DNA of 64,000 nucleotides from Bacteroidales bacterium (GTDB lineage Bacteria > Bacteroidota > Bacteroidia > Bacteroidales > M50B96), in the NCBI GenBank assembly GCA_021740905.1, contig JAIOYV010000008.1, positions 9,543 through 73,542 on the forward strand, written 5' to 3'. Of this stretch, positions 4,121 through 14,240 are shown piece by piece. The notes beneath the pieces are model-generated. The model did no database searches, was not told the DNA's origin, and was given only the letters and a program-made list of their open reading frames with translations. Made by a program: the position numbers and the translations under genes. The number at the start of each line of letters is the position of its first letter. The stretch's first letter is position 1.

Positions 4121-4159
4121 AAAAAGGGAGAATTGGCGGAGGTTGGTTCTCCTTTTTTT
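4121..4159. terminator. putative terminator
   Basis: An A-run, then stem gggagaa/ttctcc, then a T7 run directly after the ACAD stop. Confidence 0.35.
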
Positions 4160-4618
4160 GTGAAATTAGAAACTTGGGAAATGGTTTTAATAAATACCGT
4201 CCAAATTATGGGTGCAAAGGATATTTGTTAATTGATATATACTGATCTGTTTTACACGTAAATAATAATCTGTTTGTCACTAAATTAGGGTAAATTTCAG
4301 CAAACCATTTCATAGAATTAGGGTAAATTTCAAAATTTTCGGGACTCATTCCCAATAATTCAATGACACATTAGCTAAAGAAAAAGTTGAAAGGAGCTAT
4401 CTAAAAAATCCCGGTCAGGAAAATCAAACCATCAGTAAAATGTTGGATAATGAATATGGTTTGCGGTGAGTTGAAAATCATAAACATTTGCTACTTTTGG
4501 TAGCAATAATATAGCAGGAAAGTAAAATCGAAATCGTTTACCCAATTTTTGTTGAAGTCAGTTTGAATCAATTCACAAATAGATTTTGCTACTTTTGTTT
4601 ATTCATAAAAATTAGTAG

Positions 4619-5947
4619 ATGTCGCGTAGGATTAACCATATTATATCAGAGATTAAGGATCAATATCAATTAAATGACGATTTCAACCGGCCCTGGATAA
4701 TCGGGTTTAGTGGGGGGAAGGATTCAACCGCCTTGTTGCAACTTGTATGGCTTGCTGTAAAGCAAATACCACACGGGAAAAGACAACGAAAAATATATGT
4801 GGTTTGCAACGATACATTGGTCGAAAACCCGATAGTTGTGGATTATGTAACAGGTGTTTTGGAAAAAATTCAGAAAGCCGCCGTACAACAGGGTTTGCCA
4901 ATCGAAGCACAAAAAACAATTCCCCGGCTCGAAGACAGCTTTTGGGTGAATATCGTGGGACGTGGATATCCTGTGCCCAATAATGCTTTTCGCTGGTGTA
5001 CGGATAAGATGAAGATTAAACCTACCTCAAGGTTCATTACCGAGCAAGTGGCAGAAAACGGCGAAGCCATTATTTTGATCGGGACCCGAAGTGCCGAAAG
5101 TGCAACCCGGGCAAAATCTATTAAGAAGCACGAAATCAGGGGTAAGCGGTTGACCAATCACCCAAATCAGCACAATACTTATGTGTATTCACCCATCAAA
5201 GATTTAAAACTCGAAGAAGTCTGGTATATCATTAATGCCATGACATCGCCCTGGGGAGCTGACAATTCACAGTTGTTTCAAATTTATTTGGATGCCAGTG
5301 CCGACGATTATGAATGTCCGACCATGGTGACCGACAAAAGCCATTCATCTTGCGGACAAAGCCGTTTCGGTTGCTGGACCTGTACGGTGGTGAAAGAGGA
5401 TAAGTCGATGAGCGCGTTGGTTGACAAAGGCTACGAATGGTTGCGGCCCCTTTTGGATTTGCGCGAAAGTATGGTGGAGCAACGTAATATTTCTGAAAAC
5501 CGACTGCCTACACGCAGAAACGGACAACGGGCGGTAACCGACGATGGGCATAATCAGGGAACATATACTGATAAATACAGGGCCAAATTATTAATGCAAA
5601 TTCTCGAAGCCCAAAAGAAAGTGCAGGAACATAATCCCAAACTGGAATTAATTACCAATCAGGAACTCGTGGCCATACAGGTAATTTGGAACAGGGATTT
5701 ATGGTTCGATTACAAAGTGGCAGCTATTTATAATAAAGTCTATAATATAGAATTGGAAATGAAAACAAACGACGAGAAACTACAAAAAGAAATTGGCTTG
5801 CTCAGAGAAGTTTGTGAGGATGACCCAAAAGATTTTAAACTTATCCAGGAATTGTTGATTTTGCAAAAAAACAAAGCCTTGCTCAACCGGAAAAGAGGCC
5901 TCAAAGACGACATGGAACGAGTTATTGAGAAATATATTTATGCTTGA
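4619..5947 (+). CDS. DndC/SspD-like PP-loop ATP pyrophosphatase (PAPS reductase family) with DUF3440-like C-terminal domain
   Basis: PP-loop SGGKDS at residues 31-36 and a Cys cluster C-x13-C-x6-C-x2-C (ECP...SSCG...FGCWTC) as in DNA-sulfur-modification DndC-type proteins. Total length 442 aa. A TAnnTTTG -7 box lies about 20 bp upstream. Confidence 0.6.
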   Translation: MSRRINHIISEIKDQYQLNDDFNRPWIIGFSGGKDSTALLQLVWLAVKQIPHGKRQRKIYVVCNDTLVENPIVVDYVTGVLEKIQKAAVQQGLPIEAQKTIPRLEDSFWVNIVGRGYPVPNNAFRWCTDKMKIKPTSRFITEQVAENGEAIILIGTRSAESATRAKSIKKHEIRGKRLTNHPNQHNTYVYSPIKDLKLEEVWYIINAMTSPWGADNSQLFQIYLDASADDYECPTMVTDKSHSSCGQSRFGCWTCTVVKEDKSMSALVDKGYEWLRPLLDLRESMVEQRNISENRLPTRRNGQRAVTDDGHNQGTYTDKYRAKLLMQILEAQKKVQEHNPKLELITNQELVAIQVIWNRDLWFDYKVAAIYNKVYNIELEMKTNDEKLQKEIGLLREVCEDDPKDFKLIQELLILQKNKALLNRKRGLKDDMERVIEKYIYA

Positions 5948-6929
5948 AAAGAATCTGACATATTATTGTTTAAAGTTTGAAAAACTCCGAAGATATTTTA
6001 AAAACGGAGGAGCACCACACAAACCAATCCTACTAATAAGCCTAATTCAGGCATTTCAACAAGGTCTTTATAAATCAAAAGAAATTTTCATTCTACCCGA
6101 ATTGGTTGGCCTTTTCAAATCAAATTGGAACTTATTGGTGGATACGAATCACCATTGTCTTTTTACCCTTCCATTTTATCACCTGAGCACTGAGCCTTTT
6201 TGGCAGCTAAAGCCAAATGCCGGTTGCGAGTTATGGGTAAAATCAAAAAGTTCGATGCGTAGTTTTGCAAATCTTACCACTGCCGTAAAATATGCGATCA
6301 TTGATGCAGAATTAACCAGTTTGATGCTTAAAAAAGAAGAATCATCAATTTTAATTCAGTTCCTTCTTGAAAAGTATTTTCCAAATACTAAAAGCAATTT
6401 CAGTCAAGGAGGTAACAAGTATATTTTGGATATTGAAAAACAAATTGTTGAAGAATCACAGGAAAGCTATAAAACAAGATTGGAACTGATTCGAGATGAA
6501 ATTGATAATGATGCATTTCAGGAAGAAGTATTTGTAAGAAGTGGTATTTTTAAAAGAGAAGTCCCAAGGATTTATAATTTCACTTGTTGTATTTCTGGTT
6601 TGAGGGTTGATGCTTTGGACAATATTTCGATGATAGATGCTTGTCATATTGTTCCATTCTCGGAAAGCTATAATGATACTATTTCAAACGGGATTGCTCT
6701 ATGTCCAAATCTTCATAGAGCTTTTGACCGAGGATTAATATCGATCGATAACAACTATAAGGTGATTTTAAATGGTAATTTTTCTGAAAACTTCGATTCG
6801 ACCTACAACATAAAACAATTTGAAGGAAAAGTAATTTTGCTCCCAGAAAATCCTAATTATAAACCGTCTTTAGAGTCATTGAAAAGCCACAGAGAACGGT
6901 TTGGATTTTCTTCACTGAGAAAAATATGA
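5925..6929 (+). CDS. HNH endonuclease with N-terminal putative modified-DNA reader domain (type IV restriction-like)
   Basis: The C-terminal HNH motif is CHIVPFSE...NGIALCPNLHRAFDRGLISI. The N-terminal domain of about 190 aa is uncharacterised. The gene overlaps the upstream stop by 23 nt and is very AT-rich. Confidence 0.6.
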   Translation: MRNIFMLEKNLTYYCLKFEKLRRYFKNGGAPHKPILLISLIQAFQQGLYKSKEIFILPELVGLFKSNWNLLVDTNHHCLFTLPFYHLSTEPFWQLKPNAGCELWVKSKSSMRSFANLTTAVKYAIIDAELTSLMLKKEESSILIQFLLEKYFPNTKSNFSQGGNKYILDIEKQIVEESQESYKTRLELIRDEIDNDAFQEEVFVRSGIFKREVPRIYNFTCCISGLRVDALDNISMIDACHIVPFSESYNDTISNGIALCPNLHRAFDRGLISIDNNYKVILNGNFSENFDSTYNIKQFEGKVILLPENPNYKPSLESLKSHRERFGFSSLRKI

Positions 6930-7228: not shown

Positions 7229-7332
7229 ATTGTTTTAGATTTGGATAGATTTTTAAAGTATAACCAATTGCAATTTTCCAAAAACATTGCTTACTTTTGG
7301 TAGCAACAAATGTTGATTATAACAATTTTGAA

Positions 7333-7545
7333 ATGGAAAGCTGTGAAACTTTATTAAAAAAAGCCATAAGGCTTAAAACCTCCGAACGATTCCTATTAAT
7401 CGATGGCCTAATCCGCAGTATCGATGAGCCTCAAAAAGAAATTGATGATATTTGGATAGAGGAAGCCAATAAGAGGCTGATTGCCCATCGTGAGGGAAAA
7501 TCAAATGCTATTTCTTATATGGATGTATTTGGGGAGGAAGAATAG
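7333..7545 (+). CDS. antitoxin, putative addiction-module component family
   Basis: Small acidic protein (MESCETLLKKAIRLKTSERFLLIDGLIRSIDEP...). Its stop is 3 nt before the toxin start. The internal ATG was chosen because a TACTTTTG -7 box sits about 30 bp upstream. Confidence 0.5.
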   Translation: MESCETLLKKAIRLKTSERFLLIDGLIRSIDEPQKEIDDIWIEEANKRLIAHREGKSNAISYMDVFGEEE

Positions 7546-7547
7546 GA

Positions 7548-7841
7548 ATGAAAATCTTATTTGACGAATTGGCTTCAAACGAATTAGAAGATGCCGTTGA
7601 ATATTATGATGATAAAGTTAAAGGATTGGGAAAAAAATTCAAAGAGGAAATAAAATCAGGTATCAAAAGAATTAGAGAGCATCCCCAAATGTGGCAGGAA
7701 GAAAAATATGGAATAAGACGATATTTGTTGTATCGATTTCCTTTTAAAATACTTTTTTCGATTGAAAAGGATTATATTCTGATCGTTGCAATTGCGCACT
7801 GCCACCGTCGACCAAATTATTGGATAAATAGAATCGTGTAA
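7548..7841 (+). CDS. type II toxin, RelE/ParE family
   Basis: 97 aa with a RelE/ParE-like fold signature (RYLLYRFPF...ILIVAIAHCHRRP), tightly coupled to the upstream small gene. Confidence 0.7.
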   Translation: MKILFDELASNELEDAVEYYDDKVKGLGKKFKEEIKSGIKRIREHPQMWQEEKYGIRRYLLYRFPFKILFSIEKDYILIVAIAHCHRRPNYWINRIV

Positions 7842-12962: not shown

Positions 12963-14063
12963 TCAATCCTCGATAATACGCATCAGGTCGTTGTTGATAT
13001 AGACATTCTCGTTGCCTATCTTTTTTAATTCAAGTACATTTATTTCGCATAGTTGGTCAAGATATTTTCGTGCCGTGTTCCGGCTTTTTATTTTGTCGCC
13101 AACCACCTGAATGGCTTTTATGTAGGGTTGAGTGAAAATGGCTTCGAGGAGAAAAAATGGGATATTGGGAAGTTTCTGTTCAACATACAGCCTGGTCGAT
13201 TGAAATTGATCCATTATTTCATCAATCTTGAAAATGGTGTAGTTGGCAGTTTCTTTTAAGGCCAAAAGCATAAACTTCAGCCATCTTTCCCACGATCCAA
13301 GTGTTGATACTGAGTTCAACAAATGATAATAGTCGTCTTTGTTGCGAATAATGTATTTGCTTAGGTATAAGATGGGAAATTTCAGGATGTCTTTTTTTAT
13401 AAGGATAAGGACGTTCAGGATTCGACCTGTTCTGCCATTGCCGTCCGAGAATGGATGAATGGCTTCGAATTGGTAATGGGCAATGGCCATTTTCAGCAAT
13501 GGGTCGTACGGATATTTCTCATCATCGTTTATAAAATCAAGAAGGTTTTGATAAAGCTTTACGATCAAACCTTCATTATTTGGAGGTGTATATACCACCT
13601 TGCCACTGGTAAGGCTCGATCCTCCTTTTACAATCCTCACATTCGCTTGTGGTGAACGAACGCCCTGAGAAGTTTCCTTTATTTTTTGGTAAATACTGAT
13701 CAGGGTGTTGAAATCGAGTTCCGTTTTATTTGCCAGTGAATTTATTCCCTCCCATAGCGATTCACGATATCTCAGTACCTCTTTGGCGGCAGGGCTTATA
13801 TTCGTGTCGGTGGTTGAAAGGGCTTTGTAAAGCTCATCCTCGGTGGTGAAGATATTTTCGATTTCGGAACTCGACTTTGCCTCCTTCAAGGCAATGGTGT
13901 TTACCAGCATCAGAGGGTTTGGCAATCGTTGCGACATGCCATCTAACTTCCCCAAAGACCTATTGGCCTGAGACAAAAGAAGAAGAACCTCCTTCGTGAG
14001 TATTTTATCTTCGCTGGGAGGAAGCAATGGTAAGTCGTTGAATGGTTTTTCGCGGTCGAACAT
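12963..14063 (-). CDS. Fic family protein (AMPylation/Doc-like)
   Basis: Fic motif HPFSDGNGRTGR. Start placed at ATG 14063 (MFDREKPF...). The TTG-extended start at 14090 was rejected. Confidence 0.85.
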   Translation of the reverse strand: MFDREKPFNDLPLLPPSEDKILTKEVLLLLSQANRSLGKLDGMSQRLPNPLMLVNTIALKEAKSSSEIENIFTTEDELYKALSTTDTNISPAAKEVLRYRESLWEGINSLANKTELDFNTLISIYQKIKETSQGVRSPQANVRIVKGGSSLTSGKVVYTPPNNEGLIVKLYQNLLDFINDDEKYPYDPLLKMAIAHYQFEAIHPFSDGNGRTGRILNVLILIKKDILKFPILYLSKYIIRNKDDYYHLLNSVSTLGSWERWLKFMLLALKETANYTIFKIDEIMDQFQSTRLYVEQKLPNIPFFLLEAIFTQPYIKAIQVVGDKIKSRNTARKYLDQLCEINVLELKKIGNENVYINNDLMRIIED

Positions 14064-14075
14064 ATTTTTTCGTTT

Positions 14076-14240
14076 GCACAAATATAGCAATAATTTGTGC
14101 GAACGGTGATTTTCCTGTCAAACTATGACCATATTTTAACCGTCTGCACAAAAATCAGAATAATTTGTGCAGACCCCTGTTTTTGTGTCAAACAATGACA
14201 AGTTTTATCTTGATCGCACAATATTGATCATTTTTTGTGC
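14076..14240. promoter_or_regulatory. 3 x 70-bp direct repeats each containing a 25-bp palindrome GCACAA-N13-TTGTGC, immediately upstream of fic
   Basis: Palindromes at 14076-14100, 14146-14170 and 14216-14240, with an exact 70-bp period. Units 1 and 2 also carry TGTCAAAC(T/A)ATGAC palindromes. Confidence 0.6.

Follow-up and report, generated by a model that had tools for sequence, protein, structure and literature searches.

A DndC gene overlapping the gene for a predicted phosphorothioate-reading HNH nuclease, which occupies the place of dndD in Bacteroidota

Introduction

How writers of DNA phosphorothioation (PT) and nucleases that read PT can coexist in one cell is a puzzle, and the locus described here touches upon it. 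According to published genetics PT cannot be written without DndD and DndE, and LC-MS showed no PT for a PAPS-reductase locus, reported from Bacteroides dorei, that lacks dndD (PMC10853773, PMC12914056). All characterised nucleases with a sulfur-binding domain (SBD), for their part, cut PT-DNA and do not spare it (PMC7461809, PMC10602919). In the 64-kb stretch of Bacteroidales DNA analysed here (the window), a dndC gene overlaps a gene encoding a predicted SBD fused to an HNH nuclease, and neither dndD nor dndE is present. What does a component of a PT writer do beside such a nuclease, and what became of its usual partner? An earlier note on this DNA, made from the sequence alone, had proposed a two-gene module in which the nuclease partner of a DndC-like enzyme has been swapped. 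We identify both proteins, follow the arrangement through related genomes and weigh what it may mean for the relation between PT writing and PT restriction.

Results

Judged by its sequence, the first gene encodes a bona fide DndC and not a CysH, SspD or DUF3440/IbrA-type protein. The product scored 453.5 bits against TIGR03183, whose equivalog cutoff is 290.4, with profile positions 2-446 of 447 aligned, and 500 bits against the PADLOC DndC model. Of the DndC/SspD-like assignment in the earlier note the first half thus stood and the second did not, the PADLOC SspD model giving 46.8 bits over residues 27-173 only. Matches to CysH, BrxP and tRNA-thiolation enzymes were weak and partial, and the protein clustered with neither the CysH nor the tRNA-thiolation enzymes. 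A DUF3440-like tail had also been suspected; PF11922 gave no match at E<=0.1, the neighbour is an HNH protein, and the C-terminal half is a normal DndC tail within the TIGR03183 match.

The PP-loop SGGKDS, correctly recognised before, the specificity loop and all five conserved cysteines are present in the window DndC. The cysteine cluster begins with an x11 interval where x13 had been given (C233-x11-C245-x6-C252-x2-C255), and C127 is the further cysteine, at which the stretch GYPVPNNAFRWC ends, after the specificity loop. The roles assigned to this loop and to Cys146 as an Fe-S ligand are those of E. coli DndC, in which the Fe-S cysteines are C146, C273, C280 and C283, plus C262 (PMC12193691). 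The cluster is kept in every examined nuclease-linked DndC, and the window DndC still has the C-terminal region by which the E. coli protein binds DndD. At all 131 alignment columns that show no variation among 71 DndD-linked DndCs it has the common residue, and no relaxation of selection was seen. Upstream of dndC lies the box TACTTTTG of the type TAnnTTTG, which we take to be the Bacteroidetes promoter consensus; such boxes precede dndC in many related loci, and this one is probably the promoter for both dndC and the nuclease gene.

The open reading frame of the second gene offers possible starts at 5925 and 5940 and ends at 6929 on the forward strand. The true start is almost certainly the ATG at 5940 (tATGcttga), because homologues (3253 were found) and an identical NCBI-annotated protein of 329 aa, from a Bacteroidales MAG, begin there. 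From this start the two genes share 8 nt, not the 23 nt reported earlier, and the overlap is predicted to give translational coupling. The same 'Y-x-Y-A' overlap junction recurs in three related loci (L005, L007 and L085).

The N-terminal part of the protein, which had been likened to the modified-DNA reader of ScoMcrA, is indeed of this type. Its family profile matches the SBD of Hga (PDB 8H0L, with PT-DNA) at E=5e-15, and 8H0L is the top Foldseek match of the AlphaFold2 model (E=8e-9, TM 0.85, rmsd 2.3 A; pLDDT 80-94 across the SBD part), followed by the SBDs of SprMcrA and ScoMcrA. The sulfur-pocket residues of Hga are H25, K26, L75, P76 and H79 (PMC10602919), and those of ScoMcrA used in the comparison were H116, R117, Y164 and P165. 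The window residues set beside them (Table 1) were followed through two alignments of relatives, one of 14 and one of 46 sequences. H27, K28 and P78 do not vary in either. L77 and H81 do not vary in the smaller alignment; in the larger, H81 is kept in >=90% and L77 in <90%. NF045808, the 'PT-DNA-binding restriction endonuclease' family, aligns end to end at 91.3 bits, which is under its cutoff of 180, and PF26340 (DNA-SBD_ScoMcrA) gave no match at E<=0.1.

The HNH partner proposed earlier was confirmed by a match of PF13391 (HNH_2) to the C-terminus at E=3e-13. Of the candidate catalytic residues, N250 and H259 are invariant across the relatives and H236 is kept in >=90%. Further matches of the model are VcaM4I and TagI, both modification-dependent HNH enzymes; confidence in the HNH part of the model is low (pLDDT <50 for residues 225-249). 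A DndI or SspE identity was considered and rejected: neither DUF262 (DGQQR NTPase) nor the DUF1524 HNH gave a Pfam match, and the N-terminal fold is that of an SBD. The protein very probably binds Rp-PT linkages and cuts DNA.

Table 1. Coordinates of the dndC/nuclease pair, its sequence elements and the adjacent toxin-antitoxin (TA) genes in the window
Feature	Position	Strand	Remarks
TAnnTTTG-type Bacteroidota -7 promoter-like box, TACTTTTG	4592-4599	+	20 nt 5' of the dndC ATG
dndC, DNA phosphorothioation sulfurtransferase	4619-5947	+	442 aa; intact, full length
PP-loop SGGKDS, ATP pyrophosphatase motif	4709-4726	+	residues 31-36; identical across all compared DndCs
DndC specificity-loop counterpart, GRGYPVPNNAFRWC	4958-4999	+	residues 114-127; matches E. 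coli B7A G135-W145 and Cys146
Cysteine cluster C233 to C255	5315-5383	+	counterpart of E. coli DndC C262, C273, C280, C283
SBD-HNH gene, predicted PT-reading domain fused to HNH nuclease	5940-6929	+	329 aa
Nuclease start codon over last dndC codons and stop, ATGCTTGA	5940-5947	+	8-nt overlap
Predicted sulfur-binding domain (SBD)	5940-6389	+	about residues 1-150; pocket H27, K28, L77, P78, H81
Pocket codons H27, K28	6018-6023		
Pocket codons L77, P78, H81	6168-6182		
HNH_2 nuclease core	6585-6749	+	about residues 216-270; candidate catalytic H236, N250, H259
PF09720 antitoxin	7297-7545		TA pair beside dndC/nuclease
PF05016 ParE	7548-7841		TA pair beside dndC/nuclease

The pair stands by itself in the window. 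By tblastn no homologue of dndD, the dndE-ATPase fusion, AlbA_2 or cysteine desulfurase was found in the 64 kb (best E=0.08), in line with the earlier statement that dnd genes are absent nearby, and dndC and the nuclease gene without dndD or dndE make up the minimal form of the layout described below. No meaningful RNA families or tRNAs were found around the pair. The neighbouring ParE/RelE TA pair was likewise borne out (Table 1). That the genes are AT-rich relative to their flanks held for the nuclease gene, which alone shares a GC of 0.32-0.36 with the TA pair, and not for the dndC body (0.43-0.46), which is like the flanks (0.42-0.49). With L005 or L085, whose genomic contexts differ, the window has nothing but the 2.25-kb pair in common, and beyond it the flanks of the window had no homology to any fetched locus. 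A search for close relatives carried by phages or plasmids gave distant homologues only (<=38% identity).

Close relatives of the nuclease, at 49-74% identity, provided 73 informative loci, and the expected co-conservation of the two genes was evident among them. A dndC or a dndC remnant lies directly upstream in 42 of the 73 (58%), as a full-length adjacent gene in 19 of these 42, an adjacency far beyond chance. Most of the remnants keep the 5' end of dndC. The association spans Bacteroidales, Flavobacteriales and Cytophagales and is also found in Methylococcaceae; graded forms of the layout occur in cultured strains of Pontibacter indicus, Larkinella, Plebeiibacterium marinum, Flavobacterium species, Nibrella viscosa and Dyadobacter. 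The arrangement of dndC with an SBD-HNH gene is widespread in Bacteroidota and kept by selection, and we found no description in the literature of this pair in the dndD slot. In 31 of the 73 loci the nuclease is found without dndC, in roughly ten to fourteen more it is near short dndC remnants, and DndC is therefore dispensable for the nuclease.

Which gene gave way to the nuclease can be read from the relatives of DndC. In 71 of 76 close relatives the next gene encodes DndD (TIGR03185, 284 bits), followed by a fusion of DndE to a HerA/FtsK-like ATPase. Between L017 and L159 dndC and the flank of dndE-ATPase and AlbA_2 are common, and a 1.0-kb nuclease segment stands in place of a 2.3-kb dndD; between L016 and L106 both flanks are common and a 1.2-kb segment stands in place of 6.2 kb. 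C-terminal DndD fragments lie downstream of the nuclease gene in at least eight loci. The nuclease gene thus occupies the place of dndD or of its N-terminal half. The swap of partners that the earlier note had envisaged is real, with the difference that the displaced partner was DndD, an ABC ATPase, and not a ParB-like nuclease paired with a DUF3440/IbrA protein. Fuller forms than that of the window are found: dndC and SBD-HNH may be followed by a C-terminal dndD fragment, dndE-ATPase, dndB and, further on, a cysteine desulfurase; by dndE-ATPase and AlbA_2; or, further on, by a desulfurase. The Cytophagales desulfurase near the pair falls below every NCBIfam cutoff and has IscS as its best match, and the position of a desulfurase at the end of the full Pontibacter cluster suggests a DndA role. 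The replacement may have happened once or many times: junction types differ among loci on both sides of the nuclease, but deletions in the descendants of one ancestor could account for them.

This geometry bears on two alternatives. The nuclease gene replaces the N-terminal half of DndD and is not added to it, the remaining writer genes are conserved, and the Ssp writer has a nickase in SspB (PMC12914056); the nuclease might on these grounds be an accessory of the writer, a nick by HNH or targeting to hemi-modified sites by the SBD replacing the DndD head in PT synthesis. We regard this as barely credible, however, since nuclease-only loci are common, the PT-dependent HNH enzymes that have been characterised cut at a distance of several bases from the modification (PMC7461809) and the role would be without precedent. 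Alternatively, the two genes could be independent neighbours, with DndC working with dndD and dndE located elsewhere to write one PT motif and the nuclease restricting DNA that carries PT in other sequence contexts. Sequence preferences of SBDs do differ (PMC7470945, PMC10602919), DndDE loci without dndC have been reported in many taxa (PMC10853773), and the window DndC retains the region that would bind DndD. Yet independence explains neither the presence of the nuclease in the exact dndD slot, with overlapping codons and in many lineages, nor the movement of the 2.25-kb pair as a unit, and it is very unlikely.

DndC in nuclease-linked loci is under strong purifying selection. Its dN/dS in nuclease-linked pairs was 0.023 (L075/L081), 0.043, 0.031 and 0.047, compared with 0.038-0.041 in DndD-linked pairs, and the DndD fragment and DndE-ATPase are likewise constrained in the nuclease-linked operons. 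In L075 and L081, from two Dyadobacter genomes with 20 kb of shared synteny, only the pair plus a desulfurase is present. Our earlier working hypothesis of DndC as a decaying relic of a disrupted operon was downgraded by the dN/dS values, the synteny and the kept motifs. Signs of erosion were also recorded: the DndC C-terminus is lost in the nuclease-linked L017, L020, L030 and L032, the 5' end of DndE-ATPase is lost in L020, L021 and L030, and N/S is elevated along the branches of L017 and L034. The tree interleaves nuclease-linked DndCs with DndD-linked ones, L085 for instance being 98% identical to L086 of the DndD-linked group, and recombination with intact operons could therefore account for some of what looks like conservation.

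These observations allow a takeover to be considered, in which a stand-alone, PT-dependent type IV SBD-HNH gene replaced dndD and dndC is a leftover. Loss of dndD would have ended PT writing and so made the nuclease tolerable, and dndC would persist for promoter or translational coupling, or the event would be recent or refreshed by recombination. In keeping with this, the characterised SBD-nucleases all depend on PT and cannot coexist with a matching dnd cluster (PMC7461809, PMC6224610, PMC10602919), and dndD is missing or truncated in every case beside this nuclease. Nuclease-only loci and dndC remnants, mostly holding the 5' end, are frequent, the erosion of dndD and dndE-ATPase forms a graded series, and the interleaved tree and the raised N/S on two branches fit as well. 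A takeover is nonetheless rather unlikely. DndC dN/dS stays at 0.02-0.05 in nuclease-linked pairs, including vertically inherited pair-only loci of two Dyadobacter species at a dS of about 1.5; truncated DndD, DndE-ATPase and DndB are still open and constrained in the fuller forms; the catalytic motifs of DndC are all retained; and a promoter or coupling role would leave amino acids unconserved.

Discussion

DndC and the nuclease probably form a co-selected functional unit and are not mere neighbours or a relic. Our preferred reading, that a Dnd system has been remodelled with the SBD-HNH protein as its co-selected reader-nuclease partner, is held more tentatively, with a chance that falls a little short of even. 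The window would then represent the minimal form of a remodelled system common in Bacteroidota, in which the loss of the ATPase head of DndD would limit genome-wide self-marking by the operon. DndC would keep a selectable catalytic role, perhaps with the help of a housekeeping desulfurase of the IscS type and of its own specificity loop.

The direction in which PT would act on the nuclease is a separate matter. By analogy with its characterised relatives, we lean slightly towards PT on incoming DNA provoking cutting. A PT-provoked nuclease alongside an active writer would be self-destructive, and for this reason the role of DndC is left unexplained in that direction. The reverse, protection of self DNA from this nuclease by PT, is unlikely. 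It would follow the logic of DndI and SspE: DndC would write PT through partners in trans or DndE-ATPase, and the SBD would sense self PT and restrain HNH on host DNA or license attack on unmarked invaders. PT writers accompanied by PT-sensing HNH nickases are established in IscS-DndBCDE-DndI and SspABCD-SspE (PMC11662687), Pontibacter carries a ScoMcrA-type SBD-HNH gene in divergent orientation beside a dnd cluster that is intact, SBD-SRA-HNH genes lie directly 3' of Dnd modification genes (Rakesh et al.), and the fuller forms retain dndB and a desulfurase. On the other hand, the nuclease lacks a nearby writer in 31 of 73 loci, where it would be toxic or useless, and has no ATPase or translocase for scanning between sparse PT sites; dndD and dndE are absent from the window, and PT inhibition has been demonstrated for no SBD enzyme. 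This whole scheme of DndC writing a self mark therefore appears quite improbable.

That the pair is a restriction-modification module can be offered only as a hypothesis, because the characterised SBD-nucleases cut PT-DNA, DndD and DndE are absent, and 31 of 73 loci have the nuclease but no dndC. A more novel reading would have writer and reader act on the same DNA molecule. In a 'mark and cut' version, DndC, freed from the scanning head of DndD, would phosphorothioate foreign DNA, incoming or replicating, and the coupled SBD-HNH would cut the freshly marked DNA; in a maintenance version, the SBD would guide DndC and HNH to hemi-modified sites. Either would be a long shot, and if true would be a reader-coupled modification of the DNA backbone without described precedent.

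The DndD-DndE pair has been called the obligate core of Dnd, and here a reader-nuclease coupled to DndC takes the place of DndD. The graded forms bear on whether DndC acts without DndD, on whether nucleases of this SBD-HNH clade are triggered or held back by PT, and on how lineages shift between PT writing and PT restriction. The compact family of predicted PT-reading nucleases could also serve PT mapping.

In relation to known systems, the window resembles the DndABCDE writer in having a DndC above the equivalog cutoff, whose closest relatives reside in dndC-dndD-dndE operons. It differs in lacking dndD, dndE, dndB and dndA, and DndE of this Bacteroidota clade is fused to a HerA/FtsK-like ATPase. 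With ScoMcrA, SprMcrA, EcoWI and Hga the nuclease has in common an N-terminal sulfur-binding fold, an H-K...L-P-x-x-H pocket and a C-terminal nuclease, which is of the HNH_2 type as in EcoWI and SprMcrA, and its relatives also occur as stand-alone genes, like type IV SBD-nucleases. Unlike these enzymes it has no SRA domain, scores below the NF045808 cutoff and does not match PF26340. Published SBD-HNH genes are near dnd clusters in <3.6% of cases, whereas in this clade 58% of the informative loci have dndC or a remnant of it just 5' of the nuclease gene, which takes the dndD slot. The window encodes part of a PT writer together with a nuclease predicted here to be a PT-sensing HNH enzyme, a combination also known from IscS-DndBCDE-DndI and SspABCD-SspE; those systems keep a complete writer, unlike the window, and their sensor combines a DUF262/ParB-like NTPase and a DUF1524 HNH where that of the window would be an SBD. 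Closest in layout are the SBD(wHTH)-SRA-HNH genes downstream of Dnd modules, proposed as restriction or suicide effectors (Rakesh, Aravind & Krishnan 2024), in which an SBD-HNH nuclease is likewise encoded alongside dnd modification genes. There the nuclease gene follows a DndD-DndE core that is intact and that the authors hold to be obligate, whereas here a nuclease without SRA displaces DndD itself.

A nuclease gene in the place of dndD

A reciprocal scan of metagenomes with the window DndC as query gave 76 informative loci (64-83% identity), in 71 of which dndC was followed by a 705-aa DndD (TIGR03185 284 bits, cutoff 246) and then by DndE fused to a HerA/FtsK-like P-loop ATPase; in one only, L085, the nuclease composed of a sulfur-binding domain (SBD) and HNH stood after dndC instead of DndD. 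Two locus pairs are clean substitutions. By DNA comparison, L017 (Plebeiibacterium marinum) and L159 have dndC and a dndE-ATPase and AlbA_2 flank in common, with a 1.03-kb nuclease segment in the former where the latter has a 2.27-kb dndD, and L016 and L106 share dndC and the region 6 kb downstream, around segments of 1.19 kb and 6.15 kb, respectively. At least eight loci have a remnant of the DndD C-terminal part after the nuclease gene, beginning at DndD residue 287, 316, 359, 366, 376, 409 or 534-540; these fragments are without the Walker A half, vary in start point and have no ATG close to their 5' ends. Elsewhere the nuclease gene is directly followed by dndE-ATPase (sometimes 5'-truncated), AlbA_2 or unrelated genes. 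The DndE of these Bacteroidota dnd operons is fused to a P-loop ATPase of about 400 aa (HerA/FtsK/DUF87-like) and is not a small stand-alone protein; we found no description of this fusion in the papers on DNA phosphorothioation (PT) that were consulted.

The Cytophagales harbour a series of layouts. Pontibacter indicus has the full cluster dndC-dndD-dndE-ATPase-x-dndB ... cysteine desulfurase, a Larkinella strain and one 7.4-Mb genome have dndC-nuclease-'dndD-dndE-ATPase-x-dndB ('dndD being the C-terminal fragment), and Nibrella viscosa and two Dyadobacter species have dndC-nuclease ... desulfurase only. Upstream of the intact dndC-dndD-dndE-ATPase-dndB cluster of P. indicus (L171) lies a divergent gene for a different, ScoMcrA-type SBD-HNH protein (PF26340 and HNH_2; identity to the window nuclease about 25%), and the same combination is found in L069 and L062, so these loci encode a PT reader-nuclease next to a complete writer.

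The pair in the window

The first gene is of the DndC type, as the earlier note proposed: TIGR03183 (DndC) matches its product end to end (453.5 bits, cutoff 290.4) and the PADLOC DndC models reach 500 bits, with only short weak matches to SspD, BrxP, TilS and TtcA models. The DUF3440-like tail once ascribed to it gave no match in a profile search. Its PP-loop SGGKDS is at residues 31-36, the loop GRGYPVPNNAFRWC terminates in C127, and the cysteine cluster is present as C233-x11-C245-x6-C252-x2-C255, the first spacing being x11 rather than the x13 first read. Counterparts in E. coli B7A DndC are the PP-loop, the 'specificity loop', C146, C262, C273, C280 and C283 (PMC12193691).

For the nuclease gene the most likely start is ATG 5940 (tATGcttga), because homologues and an identical NCBI-annotated protein of 329 aa begin there; the overlap with dndC is thus real, at 8 nt rather than 23 nt. 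NF045808, 'phosphorothioated DNA-binding restriction endonuclease', covers the whole protein below its cutoff (91 bits against 180), and Pfam places HNH_2 at the C-terminus. A profile built from 14 relatives matches the Hga sulfur-binding domain (PDB 8H0L, E=5e-15), whose sulfur pocket in the crystal structure consists of H25, K26, L75, P76 and H79 (PMC10602919). Aligned with these are H27, K28, L77, P78 and H81 of the window nuclease; H27, K28 and P78 are invariant in alignments of 14 and 46 relatives, L77 and H81 in that of 14, and among the 46 H81 is kept in at least 90% and L77 in less than 90%. An AlphaFold2 model (mean pLDDT 73; SBD 80-94, residues 190-250 poor) has 8H0L as best structural match (TM 0.85, rmsd 2.3 A); next come TagI and VcaM4I, then the SprMcrA and ScoMcrA SBDs. 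Candidate HNH residues are N250 and H259, both invariant, and H236 (at least 90% of relatives). Profile and model thus agree with the ScoMcrA-like reader domain that had been suggested, and the nuclease is predicted to be a phosphorothioate reader fused to HNH.

The neighbouring ParE-type toxin-antitoxin (TA) pair and the reported lack of dndD and dndE nearby were both borne out, a search of the 64-kb window for traces of dndD, dndE-ATPase, AlbA_2 and desulfurase having found none. The AT-richness attributed to both genes holds for the nuclease gene, which with the TA pair alone is AT-rich (GC 0.32-0.36), whereas the body of dndC has a base composition like that of the flanks. At 113 nt upstream of dndC is a 19-nt palindrome, TTGCTACTTTTGGTAGCAA, which includes a TAnnTTTG promoter-like box; a second copy with 3 mismatches overlaps the antitoxin gene start, and two matches occurred in 0 of 100 shuffles. 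The palindrome may serve the pair and the TA module as a common promoter or operator that links them. A related TTTGCTACTTTTG is also present, and 5 kb downstream of the pair is an ORF with the Fic/Doc-typical motif HPFSDGNGRTGR.

Features of the window and of comparison loci (L-numbers) around nuclease or DndC relatives
Feature	Location	Coordinates	Strand	Remark
dndC ORF	window	4619-5947	+	442 aa
Nuclease ORF	window	5925/5940-6929	+	same strand as dndC
Acyl-CoA dehydrogenase genes (n=2)	window			upstream of pair
Terminator-like hairpin	window	4138-4152		upstream of pair
Palindrome	window	4488-4506
Related TTTGCTACTTTTG	window	4587-4599
Palindrome, second copy	window	7288-7306
TA pair PF09720/ParE	window	7297-7841		downstream of pair
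ABC transporter	window		opposite	downstream of pair
Fic/Doc-motif ORF	window	12963-14090	-	375 aa
DndE-ATPase fusions	L090; L017; L171	11444-13024; 10963-12504; 11411-12961		PF08870 and weak HerA_C/DUF87/FtsK matches
DndD C-terminal fragments	L033; L034; L031	11102-12064; 11034-12050; 4959-6032
DndD C-terminal fragments	L037; L170; L169	2681-3925; 10425-11579; 10666-11529
Accessory genes around pair	L028; L006	1895-3786; 7760-9836
Fused DndC-like/SBD-HNH ORF	L049	9140-10972		610 aa
PbeABCD/CxC-type cluster	L054	693-10842
GC-rich element, about 90 nt	L034	10975-11051
ScoMcrA-type SBD-HNH gene	L171	6942-7835		divergent

Recurrence of the pair

Scanning one genome per species yielded 421 relatives of the nuclease, of which the best 80 (49-74% identity) were examined; 73 loci had enough upstream sequence to be informative, in a sample picked by similarity and so enriched for intact nucleases. 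Full-length dndC lay immediately upstream in 19 of the 73, which confirms the co-conservation at issue in the earlier note. In the others dndC was set apart by a PIN-like and an ASCH gene (2), interrupted by a contig end (4), frameshifted or truncated (3), present as short pieces, mostly of its 5' end (14, three of them being a DndC-like gene of Methylococcaceae that is shorter and 40% identical), or absent (31). The pairing is real and specific. In the nuclease tree, which like all trees here is neighbour-joining without support values, dndC-present, remnant and absent states are dispersed throughout.

Accessory genes recur around the pair, as in L028, L048, L019 and L006. They include genes for a 500-aa PIN-like and an ASCH-domain protein between dndC and the nuclease gene. 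In several loci ParB-like 370-aa and uncharacterised 330-aa proteins are encoded downstream of the nuclease gene or dndE-ATPase. A Methylococcaceae MAG (L049) has a single ORF in which a short DndC-like N-terminal domain, with PP-loop and cysteine cluster, without the C-terminal tail and 40% identical to the window DndC, is fused to SBD-HNH; the parts are separate ORFs in the sister loci L043 and L046. In another (L054), a relative of the window nuclease (54% identity) is located within a dnd-related cluster that includes dnd_restrict_1, a DndD-like ABC ATPase, dnd_assoc_4 and a PT-associated methyltransferase. Just past the nuclease stop in L034, L018, L021, L022, L025 and L033 is a GC-rich element that recurs in Flavobacteriia loci whatever genes come next; L033 and L034 share it at 91-93% identity, against about 80% for their coding DNA, and it scores 37 bits (E=1e-6) against the Rfam Flavo-1 RNA (RF01705), below the gathering score of 42.

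Selection versus decay

The graded series of layouts first suggested decay, in which a PT-dependent restriction gene would have disabled the writer and left the other dnd genes to degenerate. Some erosion is genuine. The last 35-45 DndC residues are gone in L017, L020, L030 and L032, L021 has a deletion from 'dndD into dndE-ATPase, downstream of a junction also found in L033 and L034, and N/S is higher on the L017 and L034 branches. This explanation was abandoned on dN/dS and synteny, since DndC is as constrained in nuclease-linked pairs (dN/dS 0.023, 0.043, 0.031, 0.047) as in DndD-linked pairs (0.038-0.041), by pairwise Nei-Gojobori estimates with dS near saturation in several comparisons. 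Most telling against it are L075 and L081 of two Dyadobacter species: the loci are collinear along 20 kb (nucleotide identity 80-88%), and both have the pair-only layout, with a DndC dN of 0.035 at dS of about 1.5. PP-loop, specificity loop and cysteines are kept in all nuclease-linked DndCs; the window DndC has no change at the 131 columns invariant across 71 DndD-linked DndCs, and N/S is not raised on its branch. The C-terminal DndD fragments are likewise subject to purifying selection (L033 against L034, 88% amino-acid identity at saturated dS; dN/dS 0.053 for L018 and L025), and DndE-ATPase has dN/dS of 0.03-0.09.

In the DndC tree, nuclease-linked copies are interleaved with DndD-linked ones. 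The L085 DndC is 98% identical to that of DndD-linked L086 and 82% to the nearest nuclease-linked copy, with a similar pattern in L016, L017, L034 and L005. From this interleaving, and from unequal dS between dndC and the nuclease gene of one locus, it follows that recombination is frequent at the 3' boundary of dndC; it could refresh dndC, a caveat to the argument from constraint.

Mode of action

We take as established that the pair recurs as a mobile unit of 2.25 kb upheld by selection in several lineages. Judged from sequence, we likewise take the window DndC to be probably catalytically intact, and the two genes are predicted to be co-transcribed and translationally coupled; with the structural model, the partner of DndC is taken to have a putatively intact PT pocket and HNH core. 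That the nuclease is a co-selected reader partner in a remodelled Dnd system is tentatively put forward, at slightly less than an even chance. Its activity would be PT-provoked and type IV-like, which is favoured because cleavage of PT-DNA and restriction of dnd clusters are common to all SBD-nucleases tested so far (PMC6224610, PMC7461809, PMC10602919) and because the nuclease persists without dndC in many genomes; self-marking by the operon may be limited by its lack of the ATPase head of DndD. This direction gives no account of the selected function of DndC. Its conservation would be accounted for if PT were a protective self mark in the style of DndI or SspE, if dndD and dndE were provided in trans with non-overlapping motif specificities, if the nuclease were an accessory of the writer, or if DndC marked DNA that the nuclease then cut, but each of these alternatives clashes with other observations.

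Relation to known systems

Fewer than 3.6% of SBD-HNH genes have dnd genes nearby according to Lutz et al. (PMC7461809). A survey from 2026 of the genes around DndC made a neighbouring P-loop NTPase a requirement and left HNH unmentioned; it also reported that PT was absent from a Bacteroides strain in which a PAPS reductase lies next to an ATPase and dndD is missing (PMC12914056). Rakesh, Aravind and Krishnan regarded DndD/CxC-DndE as the obligate core and described SBD-SRA-HNH genes appended 3' of Dnd modules (PMC10853773). We found no description in the literature of an SBD-HNH gene in place of dndD right after dndC. The SBD-SRA-HNH genes lie downstream of Dnd modules; the window nuclease gene occupies the dndD slot directly after dndC.
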